In this document: positions 5,796 to 53,391 of the stretch, in pieces
How the letters are laid out: every line of letters begins with the position of its first letter
Numbering within the stretch: the stretch's first letter is position 1
Source: a virus
DNA: 55,920 nt
Direction: 5' to 3' (one strand)
Virus record (IMG/VR): IMGVR_UViG_3300006143_000014
Coordinates: 1 to 55,920 of that record
Program-made: the position numbers and the translations under genes
The notes under the pieces: model-generated
The model's database searches: none
Told to the model about the DNA's origin: nothing
Seen by the model: the letters and a program-made list of their open reading frames with translations, nothing else

Positions 5796-6188
5796 ATGTA
5801 TTGCAGAAACTGCGGCCAGCCGCTCAACCCGCGGGCGGATTATTGCGTTAAGTGCGGCGTGGGCGTGGGGAAGGGGGCAAGCTTTTGCCCAAATTGTGGT
5901 TTCCAGGTTTCTGAAATTGCCGACGTCTGTGTCCGCTGCGGAACGTCTCTTGCAAGAATAGCTCCAAAGTCCAAGGTTTTGGCCGGCCTTTTAGGTATCA
6001 TTTTCGGGTGCTTTGGGGTACATAATTTCTATCTCAACTATGTGGGGAAAGCTGTTGCGCAGCTGCTCATCACGCTTTTGAGTTTTGGGCTTTTGGCGTG
6101 GGTCTCCGCCTTATGGGGGCTCATTGAAGGAATACTTATCCTGACAGGTTCCATCAACAGGTCGAAAAAAGGAGTTCCAATTGAGTAA
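5796..6188 (+). CDS. Double zinc-ribbon plus TM2-domain membrane protein
   Basis: CRNCG..CVKCG..CPNCG..CVRCG followed by the TM2 motif GLLGIIFGCFGVHNFYLNYVGKA. Confidence 0.85.
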   Translation: MYCRNCGQPLNPRADYCVKCGVGVGKGASFCPNCGFQVSEIADVCVRCGTSLARIAPKSKVLAGLLGIIFGCFGVHNFYLNYVGKAVAQLLITLLSFGLLAWVSALWGLIEGILILTGSINRSKKGVPIE

Positions 6189-7533
6189 TGATATGAAGCG
6201 GGTATTTCTTTACGTGCGCGTCAGCACCGAAGAACAGGCTGTCCATGGGCTGTCCATCGAGGCGCAGACCGCCGCCCTGGAAGACTGGGCAAAGGCAAAT
6301 GGGCACAAGGTCGTGGGCCTCTATGTAGACGCTGGAATTTCTGCCCGGAAGCCATCCACGAAACGGCCTGCGCTCCAACGCTTACTTGATGACGTAAGGG
6401 CAGGCAAGGGCAACATGGTTGTATTTACCAAGCTGGACAGGTGGTTTCGGTCGGTGAGCCAATACTACCAGGTGCAGGACGTGTTAGAGGCGCACAATGT
6501 ATCGTGGCGGGCAATCCATGAGGACTACGAGACCGCCACCGCATCCGGGCGCTTAAAGGTCAATATCATGCTCAGCGTGGCCCAGGATGAGGCGGATCGA
6601 ACATCGGAGAGGATCAAGGCAATCAACGAAATGAAGCGTCAGAAGCTGGAGCCGCTTACCGGGCAAATGCCATATGGATATATACTTGAGGGCAAAAAAA
6701 TTGTCAAGGACCCAAAAACGCAAAAGGCCGTAGAGATATTTTTCAAAACGCTGCTTGAAACCGGGTCGGTTTCCGGGTCGCAGCAGGAAGTTTTTGAGCA
6801 GTGCGGGATTGTCCTTAACTATGAGCGGGTGTACCGAATGATGAAAAGCACCGCCTATTATGGGCGGTACTTTAACGCAGATGGTATGGTTCCCCCATAT
6901 GTGACAAAACAGGATTATGATAAGATACAGGAAGCGAGGCGGAAACTTGTAAGAAAATCTCCAAAAAACCATATTTTCCTCTTTTCTGGGCTTATGGTAT
7001 GCGCAGAATGCGGTCGCAGAATGGGCACACGGCGGGCCACGCACTCGAATTACCAATATTATGCTTGCCCGTCTTCATACCGAAAGACGGCGGATTGCAA
7101 TAATAGGGTTTGCATAAACGAAAAGAACATAGAGCAATACATCCTCGATACGCTGGATGAAAAAATAAGGCAAAAAAAAATTGAGTACGAAAAAGAAGCC
7201 GCACAGCGGAAAGAAAAAAATTACAAAGCGGAGATATCTGCTGTGCGCGGAAAGCTAAAGCGGCTCAAAAGCCTTTATATTGAGGACATAATCTCAATAG
7301 AAGATTACAGGGAAGATTATGCTAAGCTGACCGAAAAATTGGAGGAGCTGTCTAAACTGGATAAACCCGAGCCGCAACCTAATTTTGGGACCCTGGATAC
7401 GTTCGTACAGTCCGGATGGAAAGAGGCATACTTTGCCCTTGAAAAAGAGCGCAAAAAGAAAGTTTGGCGTTCTGTTATAAGGGAGATACGGGTCTACCCG
7501 GACCGGCATATTGAGTTTGATTTGGACGTTTAA
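6181..7533 (+). CDS. int: Large serine recombinase (phage integrase)
   Basis: YVRVSTEEQ catalytic-Ser motif, recombinase domain, CAECGRRMG...YYACP zinc ribbon and a C-terminal coiled coil. Confidence 0.95.
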   Translation: MSNDMKRVFLYVRVSTEEQAVHGLSIEAQTAALEDWAKANGHKVVGLYVDAGISARKPSTKRPALQRLLDDVRAGKGNMVVFTKLDRWFRSVSQYYQVQDVLEAHNVSWRAIHEDYETATASGRLKVNIMLSVAQDEADRTSERIKAINEMKRQKLEPLTGQMPYGYILEGKKIVKDPKTQKAVEIFFKTLLETGSVSGSQQEVFEQCGIVLNYERVYRMMKSTAYYGRYFNADGMVPPYVTKQDYDKIQEARRKLVRKSPKNHIFLFSGLMVCAECGRRMGTRRATHSNYQYYACPSSYRKTADCNNRVCINEKNIEQYILDTLDEKIRQKKIEYEKEAAQRKEKNYKAEISAVRGKLKRLKSLYIEDIISIEDYREDYAKLTEKLEELSKLDKPEPQPNFGTLDTFVQSGWKEAYFALEKERKKKVWRSVIREIRVYPDRHIEFDLDV

Positions 7534-11643: not shown

Positions 11644-12363
11644 TTAATCCAACTTTCCCAACCGGTCCAGCACGGTCATGGTCCGGCAGAAGTCCTCGGA
11701 CACGTTCAGCGCCCCGTCCCCGGTGCCCTTGAGCGCACCCTTCTTCACAAGCTTGTCCACCGTGGGCCGGTAGTGGCTGGGCACATCCTCCAGCTTCTCG
11801 TAAATAACAACCATCTCGTCGTCCTCCTTTTTGTCGTCGGGCACAAGGGACCAGTCCGGCCGCCCATAGCCCTTGATTTTTGCGTACCGCAGGGAGTATT
11901 TACACGAGCGCACCGCGCTGGGGCTGCCCGCGTTGCCCTCAATGGTGTGCACGTACCCGTCCTTCACCGCCGCCACCAGCCCCGTATGGCTGGTCACCGT
12001 GGCCGTGCCGAAAAAGATTTGGTCCCCCGGTTGGGGCGTCTGGAAAAACTGCTTCCTTGCCTTGTAGTAGTCCATGGAGTACTTCGTGCCCGCGCCCAGG
12101 GATTTGTTGGGCTGGCACAGCAGCTTTTGGCCCAGCTCCCGCCCAAAGGTGCGCACGAAGCACCAGTCCACGAACACGTCGCACCAGTCGTAGCCGTTTT
12201 TCCGTCCATTGTAGAAGTCCCCCAGGGCGTCCAGATCACGGGCGAACCTGTTCCACAGCCCGCCAGCGTTGGCCCCTGGGTCGTCCAGGGCGGCGTTGGT
12301 CTTCTTGCCCAAGTAGCCCACCTGATCCTCCGCAGTGGCGATGACCCGTTCCGGAGCCGTCAT
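11644..12363 (-). CDS. CHAP-domain endolysin, 239 aa
   Basis: NGYDWCDVFVDWC...SHTGLV shows the Cys/His CHAP signature. An ATGA overlap joins it to the holin stop. Confidence 0.85.
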   Translation of the reverse strand: MTAPERVIATAEDQVGYLGKKTNAALDDPGANAGGLWNRFARDLDALGDFYNGRKNGYDWCDVFVDWCFVRTFGRELGQKLLCQPNKSLGAGTKYSMDYYKARKQFFQTPQPGDQIFFGTATVTSHTGLVAAVKDGYVHTIEGNAGSPSAVRSCKYSLRYAKIKGYGRPDWSLVPDDKKEDDEMVVIYEKLEDVPSHYRPTVDKLVKKGALKGTGDGALNVSEDFCRTMTVLDRLGKLD

Positions 12364-12560
12364 AGGCTCAGCTCCATAGCGTCCTGCACCTTCTGGCTCT
12401 GGGTGCCGAAGTAGAACGCGATCACCACGGCGTACACCGTCATGAAGTCCTGGCTGATGGCCTGACGCACCGTCATCACGGCGAACACCACCGTGAGTGC
12501 CAGGGTGACCAGGGACTTCACGCTGAGCAGGTTGCCCAAGCGCTTGTAAATAGTTTCCAT
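12360..12560 (-). CDS. Holin, 66 aa
   Basis: Two TM segments, small size, and a position immediately upstream of the endolysin. Confidence 0.75.
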   Translation of the reverse strand: METIYKRLGNLLSVKSLVTLALTVVFAVMTVRQAISQDFMTVYAVVIAFYFGTQSQKVQDAMELSL

Positions 12561-12805
12561 TATGTACCCTCGCTTTCCTTTGTGTGTCCGAATAGGACAC
12601 CGTCGTTGTGCTCAAAAACGTTCTCCACCACCTTCAGGACGTTCACGCCCAGGATGGTGGTAATGGCCTGCTGGCTCAGTTCCACCACAGGAAAGGGCTG
12701 TCCAAGCTTTACCGTAGCGTACATGGCGATAAGATAGGACGTGCTCACCCACACCAAGGCGGCCAGCTGCGTGGTGACGAACAGCCACCGGGTGACGCGC
12801 TTCAC
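12560..12805 (-). CDS. Second holin-like membrane protein, 81 aa
   Basis: GTG at 12805 forms a GTGA overlap with the XhlA-like stop. Two hydrophobic segments. Confidence 0.55.
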   Translation of the reverse strand: MKRVTRWLFVTTQLAALVWVSTSYLIAMYATVKLGQPFPVVELSQQAITTILGVNVLKVVENVFEHNDGVLFGHTKESEGT

Positions 12806-39197: not shown

Positions 39198-40820
39198 TCA
39201 GAATGGCCGCTGGAACACGTCAACTTTCGTCCCGCCGTGATAAATCTCATCCGCCAGCATGGCAAGGGAGTCGCAGGCATCGTCATGAGGGTTCTTCCCC
39301 GTCTGAACGAACGTAGTCACTTCCCGCATAAAAGCTCGGTACTCCTTGCTCCTGTGTTTATCATCCAGAAAATAAAATTTCTTGATATCGGGTGCAAATT
39401 GAATGATTCTTGCCAGCTTTGATTGTGTGTTTGGTGCTTTTCGGGTGGTAATGTTCATCTGATACCCACCTTTTCTCAATTCTTCATCCACATGGTCCGC
39501 ATACTCAGCGCCGCCGTTGTTCGCCTCAAACCTGGCATGGTGGAGAGCGTGCTGTTTTGCTCGTCCTACTACAACGGGGTAGGTCACTGTCTTGTCCCCC
39601 TGGTTGAACACGACGTCGTGGATATAGACTCTATCGCCAAATTTATAAGCAATCGGCATGGAAAGGCTGTCCCCACCTCCCCACGCTACGTCGCATACCG
39701 CCAATCTTTCCAACTCTCCATCCGGCAGAACACCGTTATAGGTCAGAAGCTCGTCCTCCGGGAACAAAAGCCCCTCCCGAATATACGGATTTCCCTTGTA
39801 CTTTGCGTTCCACGTGGCATCGTCAATACTTTCTTTCATGTCCTGATAATAAGCTGTGTCAAATCCAAGATTGTATTTGTAATTAAAATTGCTCTCGTTA
39901 TCGTCATTCAAAGCTGGTATCACTCGAAAACGGTATCTATCATTATCAGCATACTGCTCTTGAATGCGGCCCAGCGGATCGAAAACATTCCACCGAGTTC
40001 CGACCATTAATTCAAGCGCTCCCAACTTCTTGCGGTCTTTCAGTTGATTCAGGTATGCGTCATACTTTGCTTGAAGTCGGAGAGGGTTCAGACTTTCCTC
40101 CAAGTCCTCAATCAAGTCGTCACAATAAAGCACGCCGCCAGTCCCGATCTCCACAGCGCCGGTCAGTGTTCCGCCGATAGACCGGCACGTCATGGTTGGG
40201 AAACGTTTCTTCTTCACAAGATCTATCGTTTCATTCTTCGCGGAGGTGTCCACGACCTTGACCCCGGGGAACACATCTTCCCATAGATATGTTTCCTTGT
40301 CGTTCAGAATGGACAGCAGTTCCCGGTAAAACCCGTCTGTCAGTTTGTCGGAATGGCCTGACATGACGCTTGCGGCATCCGGGTTTCGCCCCATTATCCA
40401 GGTCATGAAGAAAATCCCAAGCGTTGATTTTCCGACCCGAGGCGGCAACGATATTCCCAGGAAATCCAACTTCCCATCCGCAAGGTCTTGAAGATCGTCC
40501 ACCAGTACCTTCAAAACGTGACGCCTTGGCAAATAGAACATCTTCTCCAACGGCCTGTCGCTCTCCACATAGCGGAGATATGCGTCAAAGTCATAGGGCG
40601 CATCAAACAGCAGCGCCCGCTTGTTCAGCTCAAACATCCGGGCGCTGCCCTGCTCTGCGGCGTACTTGGCCGACAGCCGCCGTATCTCCTTCCCCCTCCG
40701 GTGGGCCTCCTGAAAGTCTTCGGCTTCCAACAGCCGCACCGTCTCGAAATAGTCCCCCAGCGCCGAAGCGTCCGACAAATTCCGCCCCGCAGCTCTCTCT
40801 GTCAATGCCCTTATATCCAT
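39198..40820 (-). CDS. terL: Terminase large subunit
   Basis: Walker A-like PPRVGKST, a nuclease C-terminal half, and a TAATG overlap with the upstream RuvC-like gene. Confidence 0.9.
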   Translation of the reverse strand: MDIRALTERAAGRNLSDASALGDYFETVRLLEAEDFQEAHRRGKEIRRLSAKYAAEQGSARMFELNKRALLFDAPYDFDAYLRYVESDRPLEKMFYLPRRHVLKVLVDDLQDLADGKLDFLGISLPPRVGKSTLGIFFMTWIMGRNPDAASVMSGHSDKLTDGFYRELLSILNDKETYLWEDVFPGVKVVDTSAKNETIDLVKKKRFPTMTCRSIGGTLTGAVEIGTGGVLYCDDLIEDLEESLNPLRLQAKYDAYLNQLKDRKKLGALELMVGTRWNVFDPLGRIQEQYADNDRYRFRVIPALNDDNESNFNYKYNLGFDTAYYQDMKESIDDATWNAKYKGNPYIREGLLFPEDELLTYNGVLPDGELERLAVCDVAWGGGDSLSMPIAYKFGDRVYIHDVVFNQGDKTVTYPVVVGRAKQHALHHARFEANNGGAEYADHVDEELRKGGYQMNITTRKAPNTQSKLARIIQFAPDIKKFYFLDDKHRSKEYRAFMREVTTFVQTGKNPHDDACDSLAMLADEIYHGGTKVDVFQRPF

Positions 40821-41254
40821 TACAGCCGTCTCCTCGCCCACTCTGCCATCAAAAGTGCCTCTGCCATCCCATCATGGTCTTTCTTGCACCTGTCTGTCCA
40901 GCGCAGGCTCATGTCCGGGAACAGCCGCTTACACACGGCAATGGAGCTATTCTTGTCCCCGGTTACCTGAAACTCCTTCTTCCACTTTCCAGGCGTCACC
41001 AGCTCATATGGGATAGAGTAGGCGGTCAGAAGCCCCTGGATAAATCCGAAGTTCTCCCCGAACTTGAACATGGAGGTCACGCCCTGGCCCGGCATGGCTC
41101 CCACACGCTCCAGGCAGCATTTTGCATTCCCGCCAACATCGTGGAGAAGGTCACGGTATCGCTCCTCGTCAAACGTCACCACGTCAGCATTCCCATTCTC
41201 CCGGATAACTGCCATCGCCCCGTCCTTGCCAGGGTCTACGCCTATGTAGATCAT
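40820..41254 (-). CDS. RuvC-like Holliday junction resolvase, copy 1
   Basis: IYIGVDPGKDGA and DHDGMAEALLMA motifs. Paralog of 50467..50907. Confidence 0.8.
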   Translation of the reverse strand: MIYIGVDPGKDGAMAVIRENGNADVVTFDEERYRDLLHDVGGNAKCCLERVGAMPGQGVTSMFKFGENFGFIQGLLTAYSIPYELVTPGKWKKEFQVTGDKNSSIAVCKRLFPDMSLRWTDRCKKDHDGMAEALLMAEWARRRL

Positions 41255-41296
41255 ACATCGCTCCTTTTTTGATTTTGAAAAATTTTGGGAAACACG

Positions 41297-41851
41297 CTAT
41301 CCTCCACAGGACCGCAACTTCTGAATATCCTTCCATTCGCCACGGGCAAAGAACGCCGGATTAAACTGATACAACCCACGGTCCACCCGAAGGATAGCCC
41401 CGTATTTCACCAAATCAGACACAGCGTGGTTTATCTGGCTGATCTTCACTTGCAGCTCTCCCGCCGCCCTCTGCCGCATAGGGTTCCCAAATTCAAAGCA
41501 CGGGTCCCCGTTTGCGTAGGGCATCCGCCCCAAAAGCCACAGCAGCACAGGCCAGCAGTAAAGCGGTATTTCCCGCAGTCTGACCAGCCCATCCAGATAT
41601 AGCTTCAAATATGCGGGCTCACTCTGGGGCGCGGAGACATACACGGTGGACATACCCTTCACTTCTCCTGTTGTATCGTCCACCGAAATAACCGTCCGCA
41701 CAGGCCGCCCCACACTATCACCCCCGCCCAATTCTACCACTTCTTGCAGGATTTTCGCAATACTTGTTGCAGCCAAACCGCGTTTTCGTTGCAGGAATCC
41801 TGCAAGATGAAAAATCCTCGAATCCGTTGCGGCAGTAAGGCGGAAGCCCAT
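41297..41851 (-). CDS. Winged-helix protein, possibly RepL-like replication/maintenance protein
   Basis: ...QVKISQINHAVSDLVKYGAILRVDRGLYQFNPAFFARG is a wHTH pattern. The start may instead be ATG 41653. Confidence 0.45.
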   Translation of the reverse strand: MGFRLTAATDSRIFHLAGFLQRKRGLAATSIAKILQEVVELGGGDSVGRPVRTVISVDDTTGEVKGMSTVYVSAPQSEPAYLKLYLDGLVRLREIPLYCWPVLLWLLGRMPYANGDPCFEFGNPMRQRAAGELQVKISQINHAVSDLVKYGAILRVDRGLYQFNPAFFARGEWKDIQKLRSCGG

Positions 41852-41860
41852 TTTAGGGGG

Positions 41861-42163
41861 TCAATTCCCTTCTTTTCTATTATCGGACGTTTTTTCGCTG
41901 TTCGGCCCGCCCGCCGCCTCCACCTTCTTCCCCGCCTCATCTATCACGATCGGGTCCTCATACTCCAAGGCATGACGGCGTACTAAAAGGACATCATATC
42001 CAACAGCATTTGCCATGCGTATAAGCGATGATACCTTCATTTCGTTCCTGCTGATCGGCGTTGTCAAAGCAGTCGTACAACTATTTCCCGCTTTCTCAGC
42101 CATTTTTTTATACGTCAGCCCTGTCCTTTTGGACAGCTCTTTTAACGCTTCCGACAACGTCAT
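41861..42163 (-). CDS. HTH DNA-binding protein, 100 aa
   Basis: MTLSEALKELSKRTGLTYKKMAEKAGNS... is an HTH-like N-terminus. Confidence 0.55.
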   Translation of the reverse strand: MTLSEALKELSKRTGLTYKKMAEKAGNSCTTALTTPISRNEMKVSSLIRMANAVGYDVLLVRRHALEYEDPIVIDEAGKKVEAAGGPNSEKTSDNRKEGN

Positions 42164-42667
42164 GGCATCATCCCCCGTCTTTTATTGTATCACACTTTCG
42201 TATATTTTGCAACCTTTTTTGTTTTTCAGTAATTCAAGGGACTCACCAAGAAAATGGCCAGACCTTCATATCCCCCACGGGTGCCCGTTGCCCGAGCAAG
42301 CCGGAAAAGCCGCCAAAAAATTGGCTGATTTCAACGGCCCCAAGCCGAACTACTCAACAAAATCAGTATTTTGTTAAGTAATTCGGCCTTGTTTTGCGCC
42401 ACCATAGCCGCGGATTTGACGAAGTGCACAATAAATATGCGTTTGTATACCATCTTTTGCCCGCCGTTCCGCCTGATTGCAAGCATGGCGCAGAGCAAAA
42501 GCAAAAATCCCAAATGCTGGGAATATCCCCCGCTTTTTCCTCGCTGTGAGAATTGTATCATGGTTTACAATTCACCATATTGTAAACCAATCTGACAAAA
42601 CAGCTTACAAAATCACCCGAAGCAGTTTACAATATGCCCAACACAGTGCAAAAAAGAAGCCGGGGAA

Positions 42668-42862
42668 CTACTCCCCGGCTCTGTGCTGGTCTGTGCGCTG
42701 GTTGTCTCGCTCTATGGTTTCCTGTATGGCCCGCTTGATAAAGCCGTTGACGCTCTCGCCCTGGGCCTGTGCGTGGGCCTGGTCAGCTCTCCAGGCTTTC
42801 CTTGATGCGCTGGAGCATCTTCCCGATCTTTCTTTGGAAGGCGGCTTTGTTTTCGGTCTCAA
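42668..42862 (-). pseudogene. Possible decayed Arc/RHH paralog
   Basis: Only the C-terminal half (GESVNGFIKRAIQETIERDNQ) matches the paralogs at 42925..43155 and 43629..43811. Confidence 0.3.
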
Positions 42863-42932
42863 AATATTCGTTGAGTTCTTCCAGATCGTCCTTCTGAATA
42901 CGCAGATTGTCTTTCCACTGGTTATCAGTCAT
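42783..42932 (-). CDS. Small hypothetical protein, 49 aa
   Basis: ATG at 42932 overlaps the upstream stop. MTDNQWKDNLRIQKDDLEELNEYFETENK.... Confidence 0.4.
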   Translation of the reverse strand: MTDNQWKDNLRIQKDDLEELNEYFETENKAAFQRKIGKMLQRIKESLES

Positions 42933-43155
42933 TTGTAACGCCTCCATTTAAATTTCCTCCTGTCTGATTGTCTCGTTGCATGGTTTCGGAGATGGCACGT
43001 TTTAGAAATGCGTTGATAGATTCCCTCCGCTTGTCTGCGTGTGCCTTTATGATTGCCTTATCTCCTATGGGAAGCATAAGCGTTACACGGTCATACTTCC
43101 CGGCGTTGTACTGGTTATTGTAGGCAATCATCTTTTCTCTGTCCTTATATGCCAT
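42925..43155 (-). CDS. Arc/RHH-type small DNA-binding protein
   Basis: ...YDRVTLMLPIGDKAIIKAHADKRRESINAFLKRAISETMQRD has a strand-helix-helix pattern. Confidence 0.6.
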   Translation of the reverse strand: MAYKDREKMIAYNNQYNAGKYDRVTLMLPIGDKAIIKAHADKRRESINAFLKRAISETMQRDNQTGGNLNGGVTND

Positions 43156-43191
43156 GACATCACCTCTATAAAGTATTATAGCCCACAGTAG

Positions 43192-43273
43192 AACATTTCA
43201 CAATGTACTAAATAGACAAAATAATCCCATGAACATTGTGCAATATTCCATCTTGAAGAACATTTATAAATGT
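43192..43273. promoter_or_regulatory. Three operator-like palindromes ACATT-N4-AATGT
   Basis: Sites lie at 43192-43207, 43231-43246 (one mismatch) and 43258-43273, in the AT-rich divergent region. Confidence 0.5.
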
Positions 43274-43281
43274 GCTATCAT
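43253..43281 (+). promoter_or_regulatory. Promoter TTGAAG-17-TATCAT with TGc extended -10
   Basis: It overlaps the third palindrome. Confidence 0.45.
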
Positions 43282-43336
43282 ATAATTACAGCAAGGGACA
43301 ACACCCGAGCTAAAGTACCTTGAAATCTGAATAGGG

Positions 43337-43365
43337 TTTACACTCAATGCAAAACATGATATAAT
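43337..43365 (+). promoter_or_regulatory. Promoter TTTACA-17-TATAAT
   Basis: It lies 34 nt upstream of the 43399 ORF. Confidence 0.5.
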
Positions 43366-43398
43366 TCTCTTATCATCAAGCAGGAAGGAGGGATTACA

Positions 43399-43569
43399 AT
43401 GTCAGATAAGGAATTAGTTACTATAACAATTCAGCATTACGGAGATTTACAGCGTATCAAGCAAGCGAACGGCGACCACGAAAACCCGGCACTTGATTAT
43501 GTGCTGAAATTAACCATTGCACAGCTTTCCTCCCTGGGCGTGAACGTGGAAGATATCACACTGAACTAA
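43399..43569 (+). CDS. Small hypothetical protein, 56 aa
   Basis: ATG lies behind AGGAAGGAGGG. MSDKELVTITIQHYGDLQRIKQANGDHENP.... Confidence 0.5.
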   Translation: MSDKELVTITIQHYGDLQRIKQANGDHENPALDYVLKLTIAQLSSLGVNVEDITLN

Positions 43570-43583
43570 CCAGCCATCAAACG

Positions 43584-43627
43584 AAAGAGTGTAGACCCTA
43601 TTCAGTTTTCAAGGGTCTACACTCTTT
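43584..43627. terminator. Bidirectional terminator (15-bp perfect stem)
   Basis: AAAGAGTGTAGACCC-14 nt-GGGTCTACACTCTTT, then ATTATTTTT. It lies between convergent ORFs. Confidence 0.85.
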
Positions 43628-43628
43628 A

Positions 43629-43811
43629 TTATTTTTCCCGCTCTATGCGCTCCTCCACCGCTTTCAAGATGTAGCCCTGGAGACTTTCACCGGCGGCGCT
43701 GGCAGCTTCCCTGATAGCTTGTCCGCGCTCCTTGATTGGCTGTATCACAATCCGATCACATTTTGCGTTGTATGCGTCGTTGTTGCGTCGCTTTGTCTCT
43801 GATATCGGCAT
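43629..43811 (-). CDS. Arc/RHH-type small DNA-binding protein, 60 aa
   Basis: ...CDRIVIQPIKERGQAIREAASAAGESLQGYILKAVEERIERE. Paralog of 42925..43155. Confidence 0.6.
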   Translation of the reverse strand: MPISETKRRNNDAYNAKCDRIVIQPIKERGQAIREAASAAGESLQGYILKAVEERIEREK

Positions 43812-43919
43812 AGAATCACCCCGCACATATCATACCACAGGCAGACAGACACGGCAACGTGTCAAAATGAACAAAAACACATTGCCGTGTTTGTACAAAT
43901 CGTAGAACCACAAGAAAAG

Positions 43920-43960
43920 CACGTGAACGTGTTGACAGCGACACGTGAACGTGTTAGAAT
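43920..43960 (+). promoter_or_regulatory. Promoter TTGACA-17-TAGAAT overlapped by two direct 14-bp repeats CACGTGAACGTGTT
   Basis: -35 at 43932-43937 and -10 at 43955-43960. The repeats lie at 43920-43933 and 43942-43955. Confidence 0.6.
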
Positions 43961-44015
43961 AAGACCATAGAAACAAACCAAACACAACAGGCCGCAGGCC
44001 GGAAAGGAACATAAA

Positions 44016-44192
44016 ATGAACACCATGAATTTTGTCATCGAGAAGGTTTCCAATATGATCTTCATTTCCTGCAAAGACCACATTTTCAAATCCTGGGAGG
44101 AAAGCGAGTTCACGGAGCGCAAACTGGCCAACGCCAAAAAGAAGATCGCCGCTTGCTACGGCGGCCCGGTGACGTTCTCCAGAACATTTTAA
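44016..44192 (+). CDS. Small hypothetical protein, 58 aa
   Basis: ATG lies behind GGAAAGGAA. MNTMNFVIEKVSNMIFISCKDHIFKSWEESEF.... Confidence 0.5.
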   Translation: MNTMNFVIEKVSNMIFISCKDHIFKSWEESEFTERKLANAKKKIAACYGGPVTFSRTF

Positions 44193-44243
44193 CCCGTCTG
44201 ATGATGGCCCGCTGGTCACGGGCCGAAACCGCCAACCAGGCGG
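44190..44243 (+). other. Post-ORF structured motif, copy 1
   Basis: TAACCCgtCTGAtGATG-[GGCCCG-ctggtca-CGGGCC]-GAAAC-[CCGCC-aacca-GGCGG]. Confidence 0.5.
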
Positions 44244-44306
44244 TCACGGGAGACCAAAGCCCGTACACTATCAACTATAACAGGCCGCAGGCCAGGAGGG
44301 AAAAAT

Positions 44307-44537
44307 ATGTATATCAGTGGAACAGTTGAGGGCTACACCTACAGCGCTAAGGTATTTGACAAGGCCAGCAGCATGGGGATCAACGAAGGTCGTATCTCCA
44401 AGCTTACGATCAAGAAGGACAGCAAAATCATCTGCCACTATGACCGGGGCTGGGATGTGAAGCCCTCCACTGCAGAAGACAAAAAGGCTACGAAAAAGGC
44501 AATAGCTCAGGCAATCCAGGCCGCAATGGCCTCATAA
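44307..44537 (+). CDS. Hypothetical protein, 76 aa
   Basis: AGGAGGGA RBS. MYISGTVEGYTYSAKVFDKASSMGINEGRISKLTIKKD.... Confidence 0.6.
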   Translation: MYISGTVEGYTYSAKVFDKASSMGINEGRISKLTIKKDSKIICHYDRGWDVKPSTAEDKKATKKAIAQAIQAAMAS

Positions 44538-44558
44538 CTCAGTTGGGAGGAAAAGAAA

Positions 44559-44702
44559 ATGACACTTATCGAAAAGAAAGCCCTTGCAAGAGCCACCTAC
44601 AGCGACGCCAAAGCCCGCTATCTTGAGACCATGAGCAATACTGACTGGATCGCATTCTGCGACGCCAAAAGGGCGTGTATGCTCCTTGGTGTGATTATTT
44701 AA
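44559..44702 (+). CDS. Small hypothetical protein, 47 aa
   Basis: ATG lies behind GGGAGGAA. MTLIEKKALARATYSDAKARYLETMSNTDW.... Confidence 0.45.
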   Translation: MTLIEKKALARATYSDAKARYLETMSNTDWIAFCDAKRACMLLGVII

Positions 44703-44751
44703 CCCACCTGACGATGGCTGGATGACCACCAGCCGAAACGCCTCCGGGCGT
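44700..44751 (+). other. Post-ORF structured motif, copy 2
   Basis: TAACCCacCTGAcGATG-[GGCTGG-atgacca-CCAGCC]-GAA-[ACGCC-tccg-GGCGT]. The stems differ from copy 1 by compensatory changes. Confidence 0.5.
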
Positions 44752-45033
44752 CGTGGGAAGTCCACCCCGCAAGGGAAGCGAAAACCGGCAGGAACAGCGC
44801 ATGATAGCGCGGCGGGTAGCCGGAAGCCCACATAAGGCGCAGCCTGGAGAAGTGCCACGGCTCCAGAAGAAAACAGATTAGGCAGGAGGGCCCCGCCAGA
44901 GAGGGCAACAAGGAAAAATAAACGCCCCGGCCAGCCTAAGCCGACCAGGGCAGCCCCCACAGAACCACCACGAACCACAGAGGCAAGGCTATTATACAGC
45001 TTTCTGCCTCCACACGTCAAGGAGGAAATCACA

Positions 45034-46245
45034 ATGGAAAAGACTACTTCTATCAAGTTTTTCTGGAACGGCATCAAGATCAACGGCGAAAATAAGCTGA
45101 TCCGCTGCTTCTACAGCGTTGATAACTCAATCTCTGTTTCTGGCCCATGCGTAACTATCTCTGCCCGCGATTATTCCGGCCACCTGCCTGGCGACCTGTT
45201 CCCCGTCCGCAATGAAACAGACCTGTACACTGATTATTTTGATACCGACCGCGCCACGCTGGAGTCGTCCCACCCGCTTTATAAGTTTGCCCGCGCCGCT
45301 GCTCTAAGAGCGGAAATCCGCGACCTTGAACGTTACCCCGGCTGCTGTGAGATTGACCGCCGCGCCCGCTCCGAGAAGCTGACACGATACCGCGCCGAGC
45401 TGGCTGCACTGCCCGAATCCCAGCCCACCGCCGCCGAAGTGGCCGCCGTCCACGCCCTGAACCTTGCCGCCGAGACGGCCCGCCTGGAGGCGGAGAAGGA
45501 AGCGCAGCAGAAAGAGCGGGAGGAAGTTCTGGCTATGCGCAACGCTGGCCGTGTGTACATTGATGAGATTGCCGCCGCTCACCCCATCCAGGACGGCGCG
45601 CCGGTGGTAACCATCCAGTGGAGCGAACACCCCGCGTTTTACTCCTGGAAAGACGGGGAGCTGAAGCTGTCCGTGGCCGCCGCCGAGATCGTTCTGCGGC
45701 ACTATGACGAGCAGTTGGCCCAGCAGAACGCCGCAGAGGGACGCGGTGGCTATGACAAGACCGGCTTTGTCATTGATTACACCGCCCAAAACGGTGAGCC
45801 GTCTACCTACACGGGCCGCTATGATTTGGGGGACAATGACGGCGGGCTGATTGCTCACATCCGGGCCTTTGCGGAAAGCTACCGTGACAAGAGACTCCCG
45901 TATCATAGCGAGGAGGACGCCGCAGAAATTTTCGCCCTTGCTGACCTCCTGGAGAGCTACACAGCCGCCGGGCGGGTGGTGTCCGTATCCGTGGCCCCGT
46001 GGCTGGAAAAGGCCGTGGAGGCCCGGAGAGAAGCCGAACGGCAGCGGACGCAGAATACCTTGGATATGGTGGATATGCTCACAGATGAGCAGTTAGCCGC
46101 CGCTGTTCTGTGCTCCCCGAAGGAACAGCCCGACGTAGCCCGGTTTTTCCTTCAGGCGCTGTCCCGCAGGGACGAGAAAAAAGCCCTTTCTGTCTTCAAG
46201 GTGTGGCGTTCCGGCGCTGGCCTGGAAGCCTTGGGTGAGATTTGA
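45034..46245 (+). CDS. Large conserved hypothetical protein of conjugative-element type, 403 aa
   Basis: AAGGAGGAA RBS. IKFFWNGIKINGENKLIRCFYSVDN..., a central coiled coil, and IQWSEHPAFYSW.... No family could be assigned with confidence. Confidence 0.75.
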   Translation: MEKTTSIKFFWNGIKINGENKLIRCFYSVDNSISVSGPCVTISARDYSGHLPGDLFPVRNETDLYTDYFDTDRATLESSHPLYKFARAAALRAEIRDLERYPGCCEIDRRARSEKLTRYRAELAALPESQPTAAEVAAVHALNLAAETARLEAEKEAQQKEREEVLAMRNAGRVYIDEIAAAHPIQDGAPVVTIQWSEHPAFYSWKDGELKLSVAAAEIVLRHYDEQLAQQNAAEGRGGYDKTGFVIDYTAQNGEPSTYTGRYDLGDNDGGLIAHIRAFAESYRDKRLPYHSEEDAAEIFALADLLESYTAAGRVVSVSVAPWLEKAVEARREAERQRTQNTLDMVDMLTDEQLAAAVLCSPKEQPDVARFFLQALSRRDEKKALSVFKVWRSGAGLEALGEI

Positions 46246-46290
46246 CTTTCCGCCCGCCCCGGAGGTCACGAGGGCAAAGGAGGCAACAGC

Positions 46291-46479
46291 ATGAAAACGC
46301 CCGACGAAATGTACGACGCCGCTTTTCTTTCGTCTGTAAATCGCTTGAAATCTGCCACAGCCGGATTAGATTTGACACCCGGCGAGCAAAGAACTTTTAA
46401 ATGGCTGACCGACCTGGAAATCTCCACTATAAACAACATCGCCAGTATTATCGAGAAAGCAAAGGAGGCCGCACAATGA
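46291..46479 (+). CDS. Hypothetical protein, 62 aa
   Basis: AAAGGAGG RBS. An ATGA overlap joins it to the FtsK-like gene. Confidence 0.55.
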   Translation: MKTPDEMYDAAFLSSVNRLKSATAGLDLTPGEQRTFKWLTDLEISTINNIASIIEKAKEAAQ

Positions 46480-47240
46480 ACCGTACATGGACAACGCCCG
46501 CAGGGCATCGTTACGCCCTTTACCGCTCACTTTTGGAGCAGCCGCACGTTATGGTTGCCGGCGCCACCGGCAGCGGTAAGAGCGTCGTTATCAACGCCCT
46601 GATATACACCGCCCTGTTCTGCGCCCCTACCGACGGCCCCAACGGGGCGCAGTTTGTCCTTATCGACCCGAAAAGGGTCGAGATGGTGGATTACAAAGGC
46701 CTCCCGCACACGCTCAGATACGCCTCAGAGCCCGCCGAGATGGTTCAGGCTATCCAGTACGCCATGGACCTTACAGAGGCCAGATACCGCACCATGCAGC
46801 GCCAGAGGGTCAAGAAATGGGACGGCGGGCAGGTTTATGTTGTCATCGACGAGTTCGCAGATCTGATGACCACCAACCGAAAGCAGGTCCAGCCCCTGAT
46901 CCAGCGTCTTGCCCAGGTAGGCCGCGCCGCTGGGGTGCATATCATCCTTGCCACTCAGTGCCCATTGGCGAAGGTCATCCCCACGGAAATCAAGGTCAAC
47001 TTTGACGCCCGCATAGCTCTCCGCACCCGTTCCGCCCAGGACAGCCGGAACATTTTGGGCGTTACCGGCTGTGAGCTTCTGCCCCGCTATGGTCGGGGCT
47101 ACTACATGACGCCGGAGGGGACCACGCTCTATAACATCCCCATGATAGAGCAGGAGGAGCTTGACGCCCGGGTAAAGTGGTGGATGGACCAGGCGCGGCC
47201 CAAAGGATTCTTTTCCGGCCTGTTCAGGCGTTCTGCTTAA
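46476..47240 (+). CDS. FtsK/SpoIIIE-family ATPase (DNA translocase-like), 254 aa
   Basis: Walker A VAGATGSGKS, Walker B VYVVIDEFADL, and ILATQ. Confidence 0.85.
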   Translation: MNRTWTTPAGHRYALYRSLLEQPHVMVAGATGSGKSVVINALIYTALFCAPTDGPNGAQFVLIDPKRVEMVDYKGLPHTLRYASEPAEMVQAIQYAMDLTEARYRTMQRQRVKKWDGGQVYVVIDEFADLMTTNRKQVQPLIQRLAQVGRAAGVHIILATQCPLAKVIPTEIKVNFDARIALRTRSAQDSRNILGVTGCELLPRYGRGYYMTPEGTTLYNIPMIEQEELDARVKWWMDQARPKGFFSGLFRRSA

Positions 47241-47246
47241 TGCGAT

Positions 47247-47277
47247 AAAGCCGCTCTGCATAGCGCAGGGCGGCTTT
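47247..47277. terminator. Hairpin between convergent FtsK-like and terS genes
   Basis: AAAGCCGCtCTGC-atagc-GCAGgGCGGCTTT has one mismatch. The T-tract is weak. Confidence 0.5.
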
Positions 47278-47379
47278 CTGTTGCGTTCTGAGCGGGCTTT
47301 ATGTATGAGTGCCTAATTTTATACACCCCGCCCTTCCGAGCCCTCACAGGCCCGTTTCTGCGGCTTCTACGGCTTCAAT

Positions 47380-48024
47380 TTATCCATCCTCCTGCGTCTC
47401 CTCCAATTCCTGCACAACCGTTCCTTCAATCCGCTTTCTGAGTTCTTCCGGGTTTTGCAGCTCGCCCAGCGGGTCTTTCTGCGACACCACCACGTCCTGC
47501 TGATCCTTGTAGCCGAACATATTTTTCAAAAGGAAGATCCCGGACGGCGGGCTGATCTGGCCGCTTTGGAGCTGTTCGTACAAGTCTTCCTCCAAAATGG
47601 CGAACGCCTTTTCTATGATGGGCCGATGGGTGGTCCCCCTCAGCTCGCCGGAATACCAATTATCCAACGTTTGCCGGCTCACCCCGATCCATTTGGCAAG
47701 TCCCGGCTTCTGCGGTTTTATGTCGTTTAAATAGCAGCACGAAAAATATTCTGCGACCCGTTGAGATACCGCTATAGGGTCGGCAACGTTAATTGGCTGA
47801 AGGTCGATTGTCGCAAGCATATATTTTCGGAATTTAGAGCGCTTACTTTGCTTGTCCTCATCGTTTTCGCCTGCGTCTGCGCCGTTTCCATCTACCGCCG
47901 AAATCAGGCCTGGGATATCGCTGGGTTTCGGCTTTTGGCTGTCAATATCGCGCTGTCTGTTTTGGAAATATTCTTCTCGTTTTTTTACCCAGTTTCCCTT
48001 CTTGGAGTGGTTGTTCAGCCCCAT
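47380..48024 (-). CDS. terS: Terminase small subunit (annotated from first canonical start; the true N-terminus is probably upstream)
   Basis: ...HSKKGNWVKKREEY..., LAKWIGVSRQTLDNW, and IFLLKNMFGYKD. An HTH-like segment is encoded in frame in 48025..48132. Confidence 0.7.
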   Translation of the reverse strand: MGLNNHSKKGNWVKKREEYFQNRQRDIDSQKPKPSDIPGLISAVDGNGADAGENDEDKQSKRSKFRKYMLATIDLQPINVADPIAVSQRVAEYFSCCYLNDIKPQKPGLAKWIGVSRQTLDNWYSGELRGTTHRPIIEKAFAILEEDLYEQLQSGQISPPSGIFLLKNMFGYKDQQDVVVSQKDPLGELQNPEELRKRIEGTVVQELEETQEDG

Positions 48025-49020: not shown

Positions 49021-49094
49021 TGGTGGCCCATCCGGGAATCGAACCTGGTCCAGCTGGTTATGAGTCAGCCGCTCGACCTTCGAGCTAATGGGCC
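49021..49094 (-). tRNA. tRNA-Met (anticodon CAT), CCA encoded
   Basis: Manual cloverleaf: acceptor GGCCCAT/ATGGGCC, D arm GCTC/GAGC, loop CTCATAA, and T loop TTCGATT. There is one A-C mismatch in each of the anticodon and T stems. Confidence 0.7.
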
Positions 49095-49693: not shown

Positions 49694-49760
49694 AGCCGCC
49701 GACTTGGAATCGAACCAAGTGCATGGCAATGGCCTTGCTCTCCCTCTGAGCTACAGCGGC
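49694..49760 (-). ncRNA. tRNA-like element, 67 nt, with a truncated anticodon region
   Basis: Acceptor GCCGCTG/CGGCGGC, perfect D arm GCTC-AGAGGGA-GAGC, and T arm CTTGG-TTCGATT-CCAAG. Only about 16 nt lie between the D and T arms. Confidence 0.4.
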
Positions 49761-50254
49761 ATATATGCCATTGAACTACTCGACGCTTAGGCGCACATTC
49801 TACCCAGAAACGGCGTATCAAATTTCGTTTCCTTCTTTGTGTTGGCCTACGTCGCCACGCCATTCATCCCGCCTCGTTCTCTGGCAAATATCCAGCGTTC
49901 CTGTTGATTTATCATGGGCCGGAACGCCAGAAATCAGCCCACCCGTCCCCGCTACAACAATACGCCTGTTTTTTACGGGTCGTACCTGCAATCGACACTA
50001 ACGGCAATCACAATTAGCGGGGCGTTTATTCACAGCTGGCAGCGGTGAATTTTTCCTGAAACGCCCAAAGGGTTTCCGGTTTCGCCCTCAGTGCGGGCTA
50101 TCCCGGCATATATCCCACATCCGGGGCGGCGGTAACGGCCCGCCGCCCCTTCCGTTGATGCGTGTGGGAGGAGGCGGTGGAGGGAGGGGTCCTCCACGCT
50201 TCTATGATAGCATATACAACGGCTGATATAAACCCCCGCAATCTTCGAAATTGT

Positions 50255-50470
50255 TTATTTATCTGCCGGTGGCCCCGGCTTTCTCCTGACATATGGCACC
50301 CGATATTTCGTCTCCTTCAAGATTTTTGAAATATACGAGTTGATGTTCTTTGGCGTGGTGCAAAGGACTTCCGCAATCTGTTCCGTCGTAAGGTCTTCCC
50401 AGTCTCCTTCCATGACGCTCCAAGCGAGTGTTCCCTTTTGGTACGGATTCTTCGGTTTTTCTGTGGTCAT
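50255..50470 (-). CDS. Small HTH protein, 71 aa
   Basis: LTTEQIAEVLCTTPKNINSYISKILKE is an HTH. It follows RuvC-like copy 2. Confidence 0.55.
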   Translation of the reverse strand: MTTEKPKNPYQKGTLAWSVMEGDWEDLTTEQIAEVLCTTPKNINSYISKILKETKYRVPYVRRKPGPPADK

Positions 50471-50907
50471 AATCTCCTCCTGGCATATTCAGCCATCAGC
50501 AACGCCTCCGCCATCCCGTCATGGTCTCTTTTGCAGCGGTCTGTCCGGCGCAGAGAGACGCCAGGGAACAGCCGCTTGCACACAGCAATGGAGCTGTTCT
50601 TGTCGCCAGTGATCTGAAATTCTTTCTTCCACTTCTGCGGCGTAACAAGCTCATAGGGAATGGCATAGGCCGTCAGCAGGCCCTGAATGAACCCAAAATT
50701 CTCCCCAAATTTAAACATGGAGGTCACGCCCTGCCCAGGCATGGATCCGACGCGTTCCAAGCAGCATTTCATAGCATCACCCTGCCACCGCGAAAAAACG
50801 CCTTTGTAGGTATCCGGTTCAAATGTCCATATTTCTGGAATCGTTTCATTGTTCCAGAGAAGCGCCATCGCCCCGTCCTTTCCAGGGTCTATGCCTATGT
50901 AAATCAC
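50467..50907 (-). CDS. RuvC-like Holliday junction resolvase, copy 2
   Basis: IYIGIDPGKDGA and DHDGMAEALLMA motifs. It is the last gene of the replication/recombination module. Confidence 0.8.
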   Translation of the reverse strand: MIYIGIDPGKDGAMALLWNNETIPEIWTFEPDTYKGVFSRWQGDAMKCCLERVGSMPGQGVTSMFKFGENFGFIQGLLTAYAIPYELVTPQKWKKEFQITGDKNSSIAVCKRLFPGVSLRRTDRCKRDHDGMAEALLMAEYARRRL

Positions 50908-52419: not shown

Positions 52420-52750
52420 CAGTGGCCTCCTTGTCCATCTTTGCACCGCAGTTGGGGCAGTAAGGGGAAAGCAGATCATCCCCATTGCAAAGTCTTTGCG
52501 CTGCATCGTGGCACACAGAGCACTCAAATTTGTCTGCAAACGGGATGAAATCCCCAGCTTCATCCCAACTTATCCACCACCCATGCACCACCGGGGCAAC
52601 ATCGGCGGCGGGAAGCGTTTCTAGTTCATCTTGTAACGATTGAAGTTCGTGTGGCGTGATGAATCTGTCCTCGACAAAGCCAGTGGCCATCAAGTGCGCT
52701 ATAGCGTCAACCGCTTTATTACGTTCAATGTATTCAGCCATTCCTGTCAC
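52400..52750 (-). CDS. Hypothetical protein with C-terminal zinc ribbon, 116 aa
   Basis: CSVCHD...CPNCG. A GTGA overlap joins it to the RecT stop. Confidence 0.55.
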   Translation of the reverse strand: MTGMAEYIERNKAVDAIAHLMATGFVEDRFITPHELQSLQDELETLPAADVAPVVHGWWISWDEAGDFIPFADKFECSVCHDAAQRLCNGDDLLSPYCPNCGAKMDKEATDGLDTP

Positions 52751-53391
52751 TCCAATACAATCGTTGTCGTTGTTTTCTCGGGTTCCTCATACCCGCGCAC
52801 GTCCTGAACTTCCTCCACCGTCTGGATACCAAGCAAAACCTCGGGACAATGCGCACGGGCAAAAAAGCTGGCGGCACGGTACATCATCATCTGCCGGGGC
52901 ATGGTTTTCCACTTGCTACCGGACTTGTTAAGCCATCCCTCATCCTGTGCCATCCTCATGGTGATAGTTTCCGAAACACACTGTGCCCCACTTAAAATCC
53001 GTGTTGCCCTGGCAAAACACCCCTCTGATATCTGTCCGGGTTCGCCCACAAACACGTATTCCAGCGGCGTGAACTTCCCGCACCCGTTGATGGCCGCGGC
53101 GCAAAATGAGCCAGACCACGCGGGCTTGCCCTTCACCACATAGAGATTTTGCATAACCATCATAGGAGAAAGGCCCTGCCGATTCGCCAGGTCAATGGCA
53201 ATCAGGCAGTTCTCCGGACTGTTGCGGTAGTTGTCCGGGACAAGCCCGGATTTAGACAGCATTCCAGCGGTACGATAGGACAGGTTCATCATGCCCCGGT
53301 CATTCCACATGGTGAGGCCACCTGGAACGGGCGCTTGCGGCGCAAGGGAAAGCTGCTCCTGCAGCTCCTCGCTGTTCAATTCTTCAGGCAT
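52747..53391 (-). CDS. recT: RecT-family single-strand annealing protein
   Basis: MMVMQNLYVVKGKPAWSG...WKTMPRQMMMYRAASFFAR. It is paired with an upstream nuclease. Confidence 0.85.
   Translation of the reverse strand: MPEELNSEELQEQLSLAPQAPVPGGLTMWNDRGMMNLSYRTAGMLSKSGLVPDNYRNSPENCLIAIDLANRQGLSPMMVMQNLYVVKGKPAWSGSFCAAAINGCGKFTPLEYVFVGEPGQISEGCFARATRILSGAQCVSETITMRMAQDEGWLNKSGSKWKTMPRQMMMYRAASFFARAHCPEVLLGIQTVEEVQDVRGYEEPEKTTTTIVLE

Follow-up and report, generated by a model that had tools for sequence, protein, structure and literature searches.

A mini-FtsK operon with predicted repressors between terS and terL of a siphophage, probably resident in its Oscillospiraceae phage lineage

In the temperate siphophage genome IMGVR_UViG_3300006143_000014, the small and large terminase genes, terS and terL, lie ~6.5 kb apart, and the block of DNA between them raises the question of whether a foreign element has lodged there or whether the block belongs to the phage. 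The window analysed is the whole stretch of 55,920 nucleotides (positions 1-55,920 of that record); all coordinates refer to it, its late genes occupy the minus strand, and the functional signals described throughout are sequence predictions. An earlier sequence-only reading of the same DNA took the block for a captured conjugative-element fragment or a satellite-like cargo. Here we report the directly observed anatomy of the block, the family assignments of its genes, the covariation of its ribozymes and the comparative distribution of its parts. We conclude that the block is probably a phage-resident accessory operon whose expression does not depend on the late genes, in a temperate siphophage of Oscillospiraceae, and not a foreign element. 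The hammerhead ribozymes, the candidate antisense small RNA (sRNA) and the layout resembling the P22 immI region described below are additions to the sequence-only reading.

The operon and its distribution among related phages

The plus strand of the block carries an operon in the order promoter 43932-43960, p58, p76, p47, LPD403, p62 and FtsK. The sequence-only reading had described a plus-strand operon of small open reading frames (ORFs), a 403-aa protein and an FtsK gene running against late transcription, in a self-contained and separately regulated block, and in this it was right. The last gene (46476-47240, plus strand) encodes a 254-aa protein, mini-FtsK, consisting of the RecA-like beta domain only (PF01580, 116 bits against a cutoff of 24; phrog_1358, 6e-61). 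It aligns to the E. coli FtsK motor 2ius over chain residues 163-424 only, and in this alignment the Walker A and Walker B motifs, reported earlier as intact, are kept, as are the sensor and arginine motifs, among them ATQ-P and DSR. There is no transmembrane (TM) anchor, no alpha domain and no gamma domain or winged helix-turn-helix (wHTH), nor any extra sequence at either end. Chromosomal FtsK gives the best matches (NCBIfam 1.4e-39; PDB 2ius 8e-38), followed by EccC/EssC of the type VII secretion system, and the conjugation ATPases score far lower (TcpA 1e-10, TraB 2.6e-7, TraD 6e-5). Homologs of 243-260 aa number more than 3,800 at E<=1e-10, and the best-scoring 120 are ~70% identical or more. 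No close relative was found in cultured phages (tblastn, 372 phage records, all <60% identity), and a plasmid search returned distant matches only, without a close homolog. A constant protein partner for mini-FtsK was considered and rejected, the upstream genes varying by lineage.

LPD403 (45034-46245, plus strand) is a 403-aa protein with a solo LPD25 domain (Pfam LPD25, 4.4e-17, 62.9 bits, residues 189-284). This is its sole recognised domain: the regions N- and C-terminal to it match no family and no fold, no PDB match was found by sequence, and the AF2 model (pLDDT 86.6) matched no fold in PDB or BFVD. Among its 547 homologs, proteins ~50% identical are encoded in other prophage operons, beside DUF4942 genes and without FtsK. 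Plasmid matches are limited to the ~94-aa LPD25 domain, and the plasmid search found no full-length homolog on any plasmid. The earlier assignment of the 403-aa protein to a conjugative-element type is supported as far as the domain goes, which is otherwise typical of such elements. LPD25 polyvalent proteins have been described as found only in conjugative elements (Iyer et al. 2017, PMC5512222).

We compared the locus with ~95 phage or prophage loci (given below as L numbers) collected through terL, LPD403 and FtsK searches; the hosts named in their genome records are Oscillospiraceae, including Colidextribacter sp. OB.20. Three layouts were distinguished. In layout A (22 loci), terS and terL abut and have an FtsK operon on the reverse strand immediately upstream of the pair; a homolog of the regulator RHH65 often follows this operon. 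In layout B (at least 9 loci), the order is terS, reverse FtsK operon, terL; this is the arrangement of the window, L053, L079-L082, L084, L089 and L093 and also, probably, of L094, plus three partial loci. Layout C (15 loci) has a 2-5 kb gap between terS and terL without FtsK, often containing homologs of two further block genes, HTH100 or p184. The juxtaposition of terS and terL that the sequence-only reading described as normal in siphophages is found in layout A, with a gap in layouts B and C. The FtsK gene lies within ~2.5 kb of terS in 33 of the 37 loci that carry it, and its strand is always opposite to that of terS. By reasoning, a simple inversion cannot turn an FtsK gene upstream of terS into one downstream of it.

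Conservation is uneven across the locus. Between the window and the layout B phages, terL is 39-46% and terS 27-47% identical, with FtsK at 71-80%; the value of 71% comes from phages whose terL is 39% identical. The Colidextribacter locus L089 shares terS, p62-FtsK, HTH100, p184, RuvC, terL and portal with the window and has no LPD403. HTH100 and p184 occur in relatives without FtsK, FtsK occurs without LPD403, LPD403 homologs occur without FtsK, and both RuvC and p184 are missing from most FtsK-bearing relatives, the RepL-like p184 being found also in relatives without the operon. At the DNA level, a megablast of the block against phages matched one unrelated short record. Because its parts are distributed independently in a hotspot typical of the lineage, we regard the block as a mosaic of phage genes and not as one inserted unit. 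A gap of several kb between terS and terL is a normal accessory hotspot in Oscillospiraceae phages, which matters for annotation pipelines and for prophage and satellite callers.

Predicted regulatory signals and hammerhead ribozymes

The operon and the ribbon-helix-helix (RHH) gene RHH65 share a divergent control region (43845-43960), which holds the plus-strand operon promoter TTGACA-17-TAGAAT (43932-43960), an inverted repeat (I15, 43845-43894) and ACGTGAACGTGTT repeats that cover the -35 and -10 boxes. RHH65 (43629-43826, minus strand; phrog_13890, 1.5e-7) is transcribed divergently from the FtsK operon. Two further RHH genes, RHH76 (42925-43155, minus strand; phrog_13890) and the remnant RHH64 (42668-42862, minus strand; phrog_13890 plus an Arc-like PHROG), form, together with p54, one transcription unit (42668-43155, minus strand) that ends at the terminator 42657-42681. 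The 3' ends of all three RHH genes make up the DNA repeat family D1. The earlier description of three Arc/RHH paralogs, one of them decayed, is borne out by the shared match to phrog_13890; 'decayed' is fair for RHH64 because no more than ~30 C-terminal residues of the family are left in it and the ORF p54 overlaps its N-terminus. In L007, L009, L010, L013, L014, L024, L046 and L051, the FtsK operon and terS have an RHH65 homolog between them.

Three operator-like palindromes, ACATT-N4-AATGT, lie at 43193-43273, packed into 81 bp between RHH76 and p56, and are associated with an extended 21-nt repeat (D3). Two are exact and one has one mismatch. The sequence-only reading had counted three in the divergent region, and a scan of the 55.9-kb window found exactly these three sites. 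Promoter-like sites number 21 against 5.9 expected, and two of them match at 11 of 12 positions with an extended -10 (43337-43365 and 43932-43960), which agrees with the consensus sigma70 promoters noted earlier. A bidirectional intrinsic terminator with a perfect 16-bp stem (inverted repeat I14) lies at 43584-43627, and minus-strand terminators at 42657-42681 and 44923-44952; the 'strong bidirectional terminators' of the sequence-only reading are accurate for the first of these, most of the terminators being unidirectional.

Terminators split the minus strand of the block into at least three transcription units. The terS transcript ends at a hairpin at ~47249-47290, RHH65 is a lone unit, and the unit HTH100-p184-RuvC-terL starts from a weaker promoter (42212-42184). 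Since these units are separated by terminators, terS and terL are predicted to be on different transcripts. The first gene of the unit running into terL, HTH100 (41861-42163, minus strand), encodes a putative transcription regulator (phrog_24325, 4e-5), with homologs 1.3-1.8 kb upstream of terL in L002, L006, L021, L050, L053 and L089. A helix-turn-helix regulator was correctly recognised there before, and the label 'XRE-like' has as its basis the match to a PHROG annotated 'transcriptional regulator' alone (4e-5). The next gene, p184 (41297-41851, minus strand), encodes a winged-helix protein with a core of ~138 aa that is RepL-like at the family level. PF05732 (RepL) is matched by 19 of 30 p184 homologs (best 2.3e-9), and the window protein itself, without a match to PF05732, has in Pfam a weak AbiEi wHTH match alone; the earlier term 'RepL-like' suits the family.

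Within the operon, two short genes are directly followed by predicted hammerhead ribozymes. The small ORFs are p58, the first gene (44016-44192), p76 (44307-44537), p47 (44559-44702) and p62 (46291-46479), all on the plus strand; p58, p47 and p62 were taken from the ORF list, p76 is a DUF7678 protein (PF24726, 9.9e-26), and family searches with p47 gave no match. The type I hammerhead HH1 (44193-44250, plus strand; predicted cleavage C44245/A44246) starts right after the TAA stop of p58, and HH2 (44703-44757, plus strand; predicted cleavage C44752/G44753) right after the TAA stop of p47. They were recognised from the repeat D2 and a custom descriptor, which found exactly two hammerheads in the window vs none in 50 shuffles. 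The minimum-energy fold is a three-way junction (z = -3.6 for HH2) with stem I open, as for type I. Both copies hold the full core, C3 U4 G5 A6 N7 G8 A9 / G12 A13 A14 / A15.1-U16.1 / H17, with U or C, one in each copy, at N7 and C at H17 throughout; both also have one extra U between A9 and G10.1, ahead of stem II. HH1 and HH2 differ in stems I and II through compensatory changes. In a comparison of eight copies, pairing in stems I and III is complete (100%), with double-sided changes in 6 of 10 pairs, a covariation score reached by 0 of 500 shuffles, and slid controls show 30-46% pairing. HH2 scores 72 bits with covariance model R1. A covariance model built from the window hammerheads and those of relatives brought up more copies.

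Further hammerheads, canonical or U-inserted, occur in L015, L025, L046, L052, L055, L085, L091 and L094, all on the operon strand and upstream of FtsK or an LPD403 homolog. Decayed copies are present in L011, L012, L019 and L047, and L089 has none. Rfam searches in gathering and E-value modes, of the window and of a 631-nt sub-window, returned tRNA and chance matches only, and the canonical copy of L025 scored 23.3 bits with Hammerhead_1, below the gathering score of 34. A scan for the core and stem II alone found the U-inserted core at no fewer than 119 viral loci, of which 96 complete a full hammerhead outside the searched pattern. A common hammerhead variant therefore escapes the Rfam models, so that ribozyme counts for phage genomes are probably too low. 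Among these at least 119 hammerhead-core loci, FtsK is nearby in 2, and the idea that hammerheads are specific partners of FtsK was rejected.

Prophage polycistrons in which hammerheads flank genes, ardA among them, have been known since 2011 (Perreault et al. 2011, PMC3088659). The operon resembles such loci, for example that of ardA in Agrobacterium tumefaciens, in that single genes or short gene blocks of a prophage polycistron are bordered by several type I hammerheads, the gene content varies among relatives, and the genes are tied to establishment or anti-restriction. Unlike those ribozymes, the window copies have the extra U between A9 and G10.1 and escape Rfam, they abut stop codons exactly, and each mRNA that they would release begins with a duplicated leader. 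This leader, upstream of p58 at 43979-44009, recurs before p76 at 44272-44302 (repeat D7); every ribozyme-delimited mRNA would therefore begin alike, which suggests modular cassette duplication. The D7 leaders also carry a GGCC-GCA-GGCC mini-hairpin just before the ribosome-binding sites (RBS) of p58 and p76. At the other end of the operon, p62 appears to be translationally coupled to FtsK, whose start codon (46476) shares the sequence ATGA with the stop codon of p62; a duplicated RBS repeat (D18) is associated with p62, and a p62 homolog precedes FtsK in L089.

Opposite the leader of LPD403 lies a candidate antisense sRNA gene (44913-45020, minus strand) with the promoter TTGACG-18-TATAAT (45020-44991). 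The predicted transcript of ~70 nt, from ~44985 to 44913, would end in a 13-bp terminator hairpin and a T run, and the candidate folds with -37.2 kcal/mol (z = -5.1). L091 and L053 preserve the layout of promoter and terminator with another hairpin as terminator, which makes three loci with the window. The LPD403 leader itself contains a conserved element of ~150 nt (44767-44910, plus strand), 81.5% identical to L089 (8852-8997) and 92% to L091 (~986-1130) and more conserved than the flanking genes. As a structured RNA this element was rejected, its fold not being significant (z = -0.8). Its substitution pattern hints at a basic micro-ORF of ~25 aa with a stop-to-stop change, and L091 has a 1-nt deletion that shifts the frame; a pattern scan found only two further copies.

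Origin and possible function of the operon

The immI region of phage P22 (mnt / arc-ant, with the sar antisense RNA), reportedly worked out by Susskind, Youderian and co-workers, offers a close likeness to this arrangement. In both cases a temperate phage whose terS is of P22 gp3 type has a secondary control region embedded in its late genes, and both combine Arc/Mnt-class RHH repressors, divergent promoters and palindromic operators, here recognised at the sequence level. An antisense RNA of ~70 nt at the leader of a large downstream gene, here only predicted, would be a further likeness. Unlike immI, the block has no antirepressor (no ANT, KilAC or Bro-N match in Pfam), its cargo is LPD25 plus mini-FtsK, there are three RHH paralogs and two separate divergent units; the predicted hammerhead processing is likewise without counterpart in P22 immI.

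In the scheme that we infer from these signals, in which repression by RHH proteins, ribozyme cleavage, the antisense RNA and the function of the operon are all deduced from sequence, the locus would have two layers. The late-strand layer would consist of RHH65, RHH76-p54-RHH64 and HTH100-p184-RuvC-terL, with terL transcribed apart from terS. The second layer would be an autonomous operon on the opposite strand, encoding p58, p76, p47, LPD403, p62 and mini-FtsK. Host RNA polymerase would read it from the near-consensus sigma70 promoter in the repeat-laden control region shared with RHH65, and its control would be immI-like, through Arc/Mnt-type RHH repressors, divergent promoters and a small antisense RNA. 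The two type I hammerheads at the p58 and p47 stops would cut the polycistron into separate mRNAs with the same leader, and the countertranscript of ~70 nt would cover the LPD403 leader. Across the clade, the constant product of such operons would be a soluble, beta-domain-only FtsK ATPase, encoded beside and antiparallel to terS.

What the operon does can be suggested only tentatively. The likeliest option, though still less likely than not, is that the operon is expressed for a short time as the DNA enters the cell or afterwards and serves establishment, counter-defence or the handling of DNA, because the promoters are of host-type consensus, repression is predicted to be heavy, the company is of LPD25/ardA style, and the operon lies close to terS in anti-late orientation. 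The block may also be an unrecognised accessory DNA-translocation system, the second option of the sequence-only reading. In P22 and SPP1, packaging is initiated at pac, a site within terS or close to it, and proceeds toward terL; each headful is longer than one genome, and the end that was packaged last leaves the virion first. With headful packaging from terS, a few kb of DNA on each flank of terS would therefore enter first, in the operon's direction of transcription. It is quite unlikely, in our estimate, that the operon is in this sense the 'leading region' of a headful (pac) phage, the first DNA in, with mini-FtsK helping to bring in the rest. Were it so, the operon would provide an immediate, self-limiting burst of establishment functions, the soluble mini-FtsK would pull in or secure the remaining genome, as in first-step transfer of T5 or the push-pull of phi29, and the LPD25 protein and the small proteins would act against the defences of the host, much as plasmid leading regions do. 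The leading regions and polyvalent proteins of Iyer et al. 2017 (PMC5512222) have in common with the block LPD25, genes expected to act at DNA entry and ardA-type company for hammerheads. Unlike those, LPD25 is solo in LPD403 and not part of a polyvalent protein, and the block has no ssDNA transfer machinery.

A role in the lysogen is doubtful. In this explanation the operon would be a moron whose mini-FtsK acts on incoming foreign DNA, in superinfection exclusion or defence. The moron design is recognisable in its own sigma70 promoter, its terminators and its placement on the opposite strand within the late region, the location is a variable hotspot, and in PADLOC the mini-FtsK domain matches SspH (5.5e-32) and the 314-aa MADS protein mad8 (1.4e-25). 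However, PADLOC found no other Ssp or MADS component, the three RHH repressors and the predicted antisense RNA suggest that the operon is ordinarily kept off, and LPD25 and hammerhead-flanked genes such as ardA have been linked to the counter-defence of an incoming element, not to host defence.

It is unlikely that the operon serves lytic DNA metabolism, mini-FtsK acting with the duplicated RuvC and the RepL-like protein to resolve or translocate branched concatemers for the terminase. The constant adjacency of mini-FtsK to terS and the duplication of RuvC, with one copy coupled to terL, would suit such a helper, and FtsK-family modules of unclear role are common in temperate Firmicute phages. 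Against this, the operon runs opposite to the late genes, is isolated by terminators and uses host-type promoters rather than late control; most FtsK-bearing relatives lack RuvC and p184; and mini-FtsK lacks the gamma domain, which is the recombination activator in FtsK. The FtsK modules of temperate Firmicute phages are known, with a role described as unclear (PMC3335513). The p50 protein of phIS3501 of the B. cereus group (PMC3335513) and the proteins of cluster J mycobacteriophages are likewise phage FtsK/SpoIIIE-type ATPases in an 'additional module'. In contrast to these, the window protein consists of the beta domain only (the 243-260 aa family), is highly conserved and has a fixed place beside and antiparallel to terS, the FtsK gene of phIS3501 being near the integrase (PMC3335513). 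Thousands of gut-phage genomes carry an FtsK reduced to the motor core, for which the literature calls the phage role unclear; the present locus makes the question testable, with its fixed position and orientation by terS, compact operon, predicted repressors and operators and exact predicted cleavage sites.

That the block is a hitchhiker, be it a captured ICE (integrative and conjugative element) or IME (integrative and mobilizable element) fragment, an integrated small plasmid or a satellite expressed or packaged with the phage, as the sequence-only reading proposed, is very improbable. Its gene set does have a plasmid or ICE flavour, with LPD25, the FtsK ATPase, the RepL-like protein and the RHH regulators; the LPD25 domain is common to YodL/DUF4316 proteins of conjugative Enterococcus plasmids, distant phages differ far less in FtsK than in their terminase genes, and small serine recombinases occur in the same interval of L001 and L002. 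However, plasmids yielded only domain-level matches to LPD403 and distant matches to FtsK when searched, as the earlier reading had proposed. That reading had itself seen no integrase or relaxase in the block, and the family searches agree: no block ORF matched a recombinase (Pfam, PHROGs), the sole one in the window being the serine recombinase at 6181-7533, and none matched a relaxase family (Pfam, PHROGs, NCBIfam). A coupling protein of VirD4/TraD/TcpA type is also missing, the ATPase being FtsK-like (1.4e-39), without a TM segment, and not of type IV coupling protein (T4CP) or TraB type. Repeat analysis found no flanking repeats or defined ends around the block, its composition is not deviant, and, besides the RepL-like wHTH protein, it has no satellite hallmark (an integrase, replication module or packaging hijack genes of the kind seen in phage-inducible chromosomal islands, PICI, or P4). 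Its distribution is not that of a unit either: p184, HTH100, FtsK and LPD403 occur independently in relatives, and the same layout extends across a deep phage clade. Conjugative mobilisation as a function is extremely improbable; the block resembles the Streptomyces TraB (kil-kor) and TcpA/Orf21 systems in having an FtsK-fold pump (for dsDNA or ssDNA in those systems) under tight repressor control on a mobile element, and differs from them in that mini-FtsK is only weakly similar, has no membrane anchor and no wHTH recognition domain, and is accompanied by no relaxase and no recognised clt or oriT.

Several observations weigh against our preferred explanation, a phage-resident accessory operon. 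A RepL-like protein, RHH proteins and FtsK together are a plasmid-like gene set, and with FtsK so much better conserved than terL or terS, the cassette may move between phages. LPD403 is without a fold match, which leaves half of the operon with no functional assignment. Because the search for relatives ran in part through terL or FtsK, the linkage counts are not unbiased. Rfam Hammerhead_1 (RF00163) leaves HH1 and HH2 unreported even at E<=10, and their extra U after A9 may affect the cleavage that we predict; the promoters, terminators and antisense RNA are consensus predictions.

The terminase genes and neighbouring features

Both terminase genes are genuine, as is their spacing, in agreement with the sequence-only reading. 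The terS gene (47380-48024, minus strand) encodes a P22 gp3-type small terminase, matching Pfam GP3_package above its cutoff (9.7e-13, 48.6 bits; cutoff 29.4) as well as terS PHROGs; the identity of this product had been named earlier as a point on which the proposal hung. The terL gene (39198-40820/40841, minus strand) matches phrog_38 (6e-58) and the NCBIfam terminase large subunit. Directly upstream of it, a RuvC-like resolvase gene (40820-41254, minus strand; phrog_1770, 2.4e-33) has a stop that overlaps the terL ATG as TAATG, the coupling reported before. The second RuvC-like copy lies in the replication module (50467-50907, minus strand), with 76% protein identity to the terL-coupled one, and the latter is also present in L089. 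In L053, a HAD_SAK_2 protein (an RNA-repair 'Swiss army knife' HAD; 6726-7235, minus strand) stands directly upstream of terL where the window has RuvC, and this slot, too, is variable cargo. Outside the block, the window carries the large serine recombinase (6181-7533), a CHAP lysin (11644-12615), a RecT-like gene (52747-53391) and structural genes.

The p56 mini-cassette (43337-43569, plus strand) consists of a promoter, TTTACA-17-TATAAT, and a 56-aa ORF. A 28-nt inverted repeat, I1 (43318-43345 / 43587-43614; 93% complementary), flanks gene and promoter, with its right arm forming one half of the bidirectional terminator. The p56 homolog of L001 has a small serine recombinase as its neighbour, and the segment may accordingly be invertible or recombined. 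Small serine recombinases of resolvase/invertase type (186-196 aa) occur in the terS-terL gap of L001 (5626-6216) and L002 (8662-9222), the relatives with the closest terL. The ~500 bp between RHH64 and HTH100 (42164-42667) hold no convincing gene; they include a near-perfect hairpin of 20 bp (42344-42387) and show no homology to L089 or L091.

Just upstream of terS lie genes for tRNA-Met (CAT; 49021-49094) and tRNA-Ala (AGC; 49695-49786), both on the minus strand, the tRNA-Met region being 94% identical in L089. Portal, RuvC, p184 and FtsK are nearest to those of L089 and L053 (58-81% identical, p184 lowest), and the likeness to L089 at the DNA level ends ~250 nt into terL. The body of terL is mosaic (39198-40585, compared with L089 and L053), being 44-46% identical to theirs and 82% to that of L001. 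In L032, L033, L035 and L049, terL matches come in two pieces ~1 kb apart, which suggests an insertion by an intron, intein or homing endonuclease.

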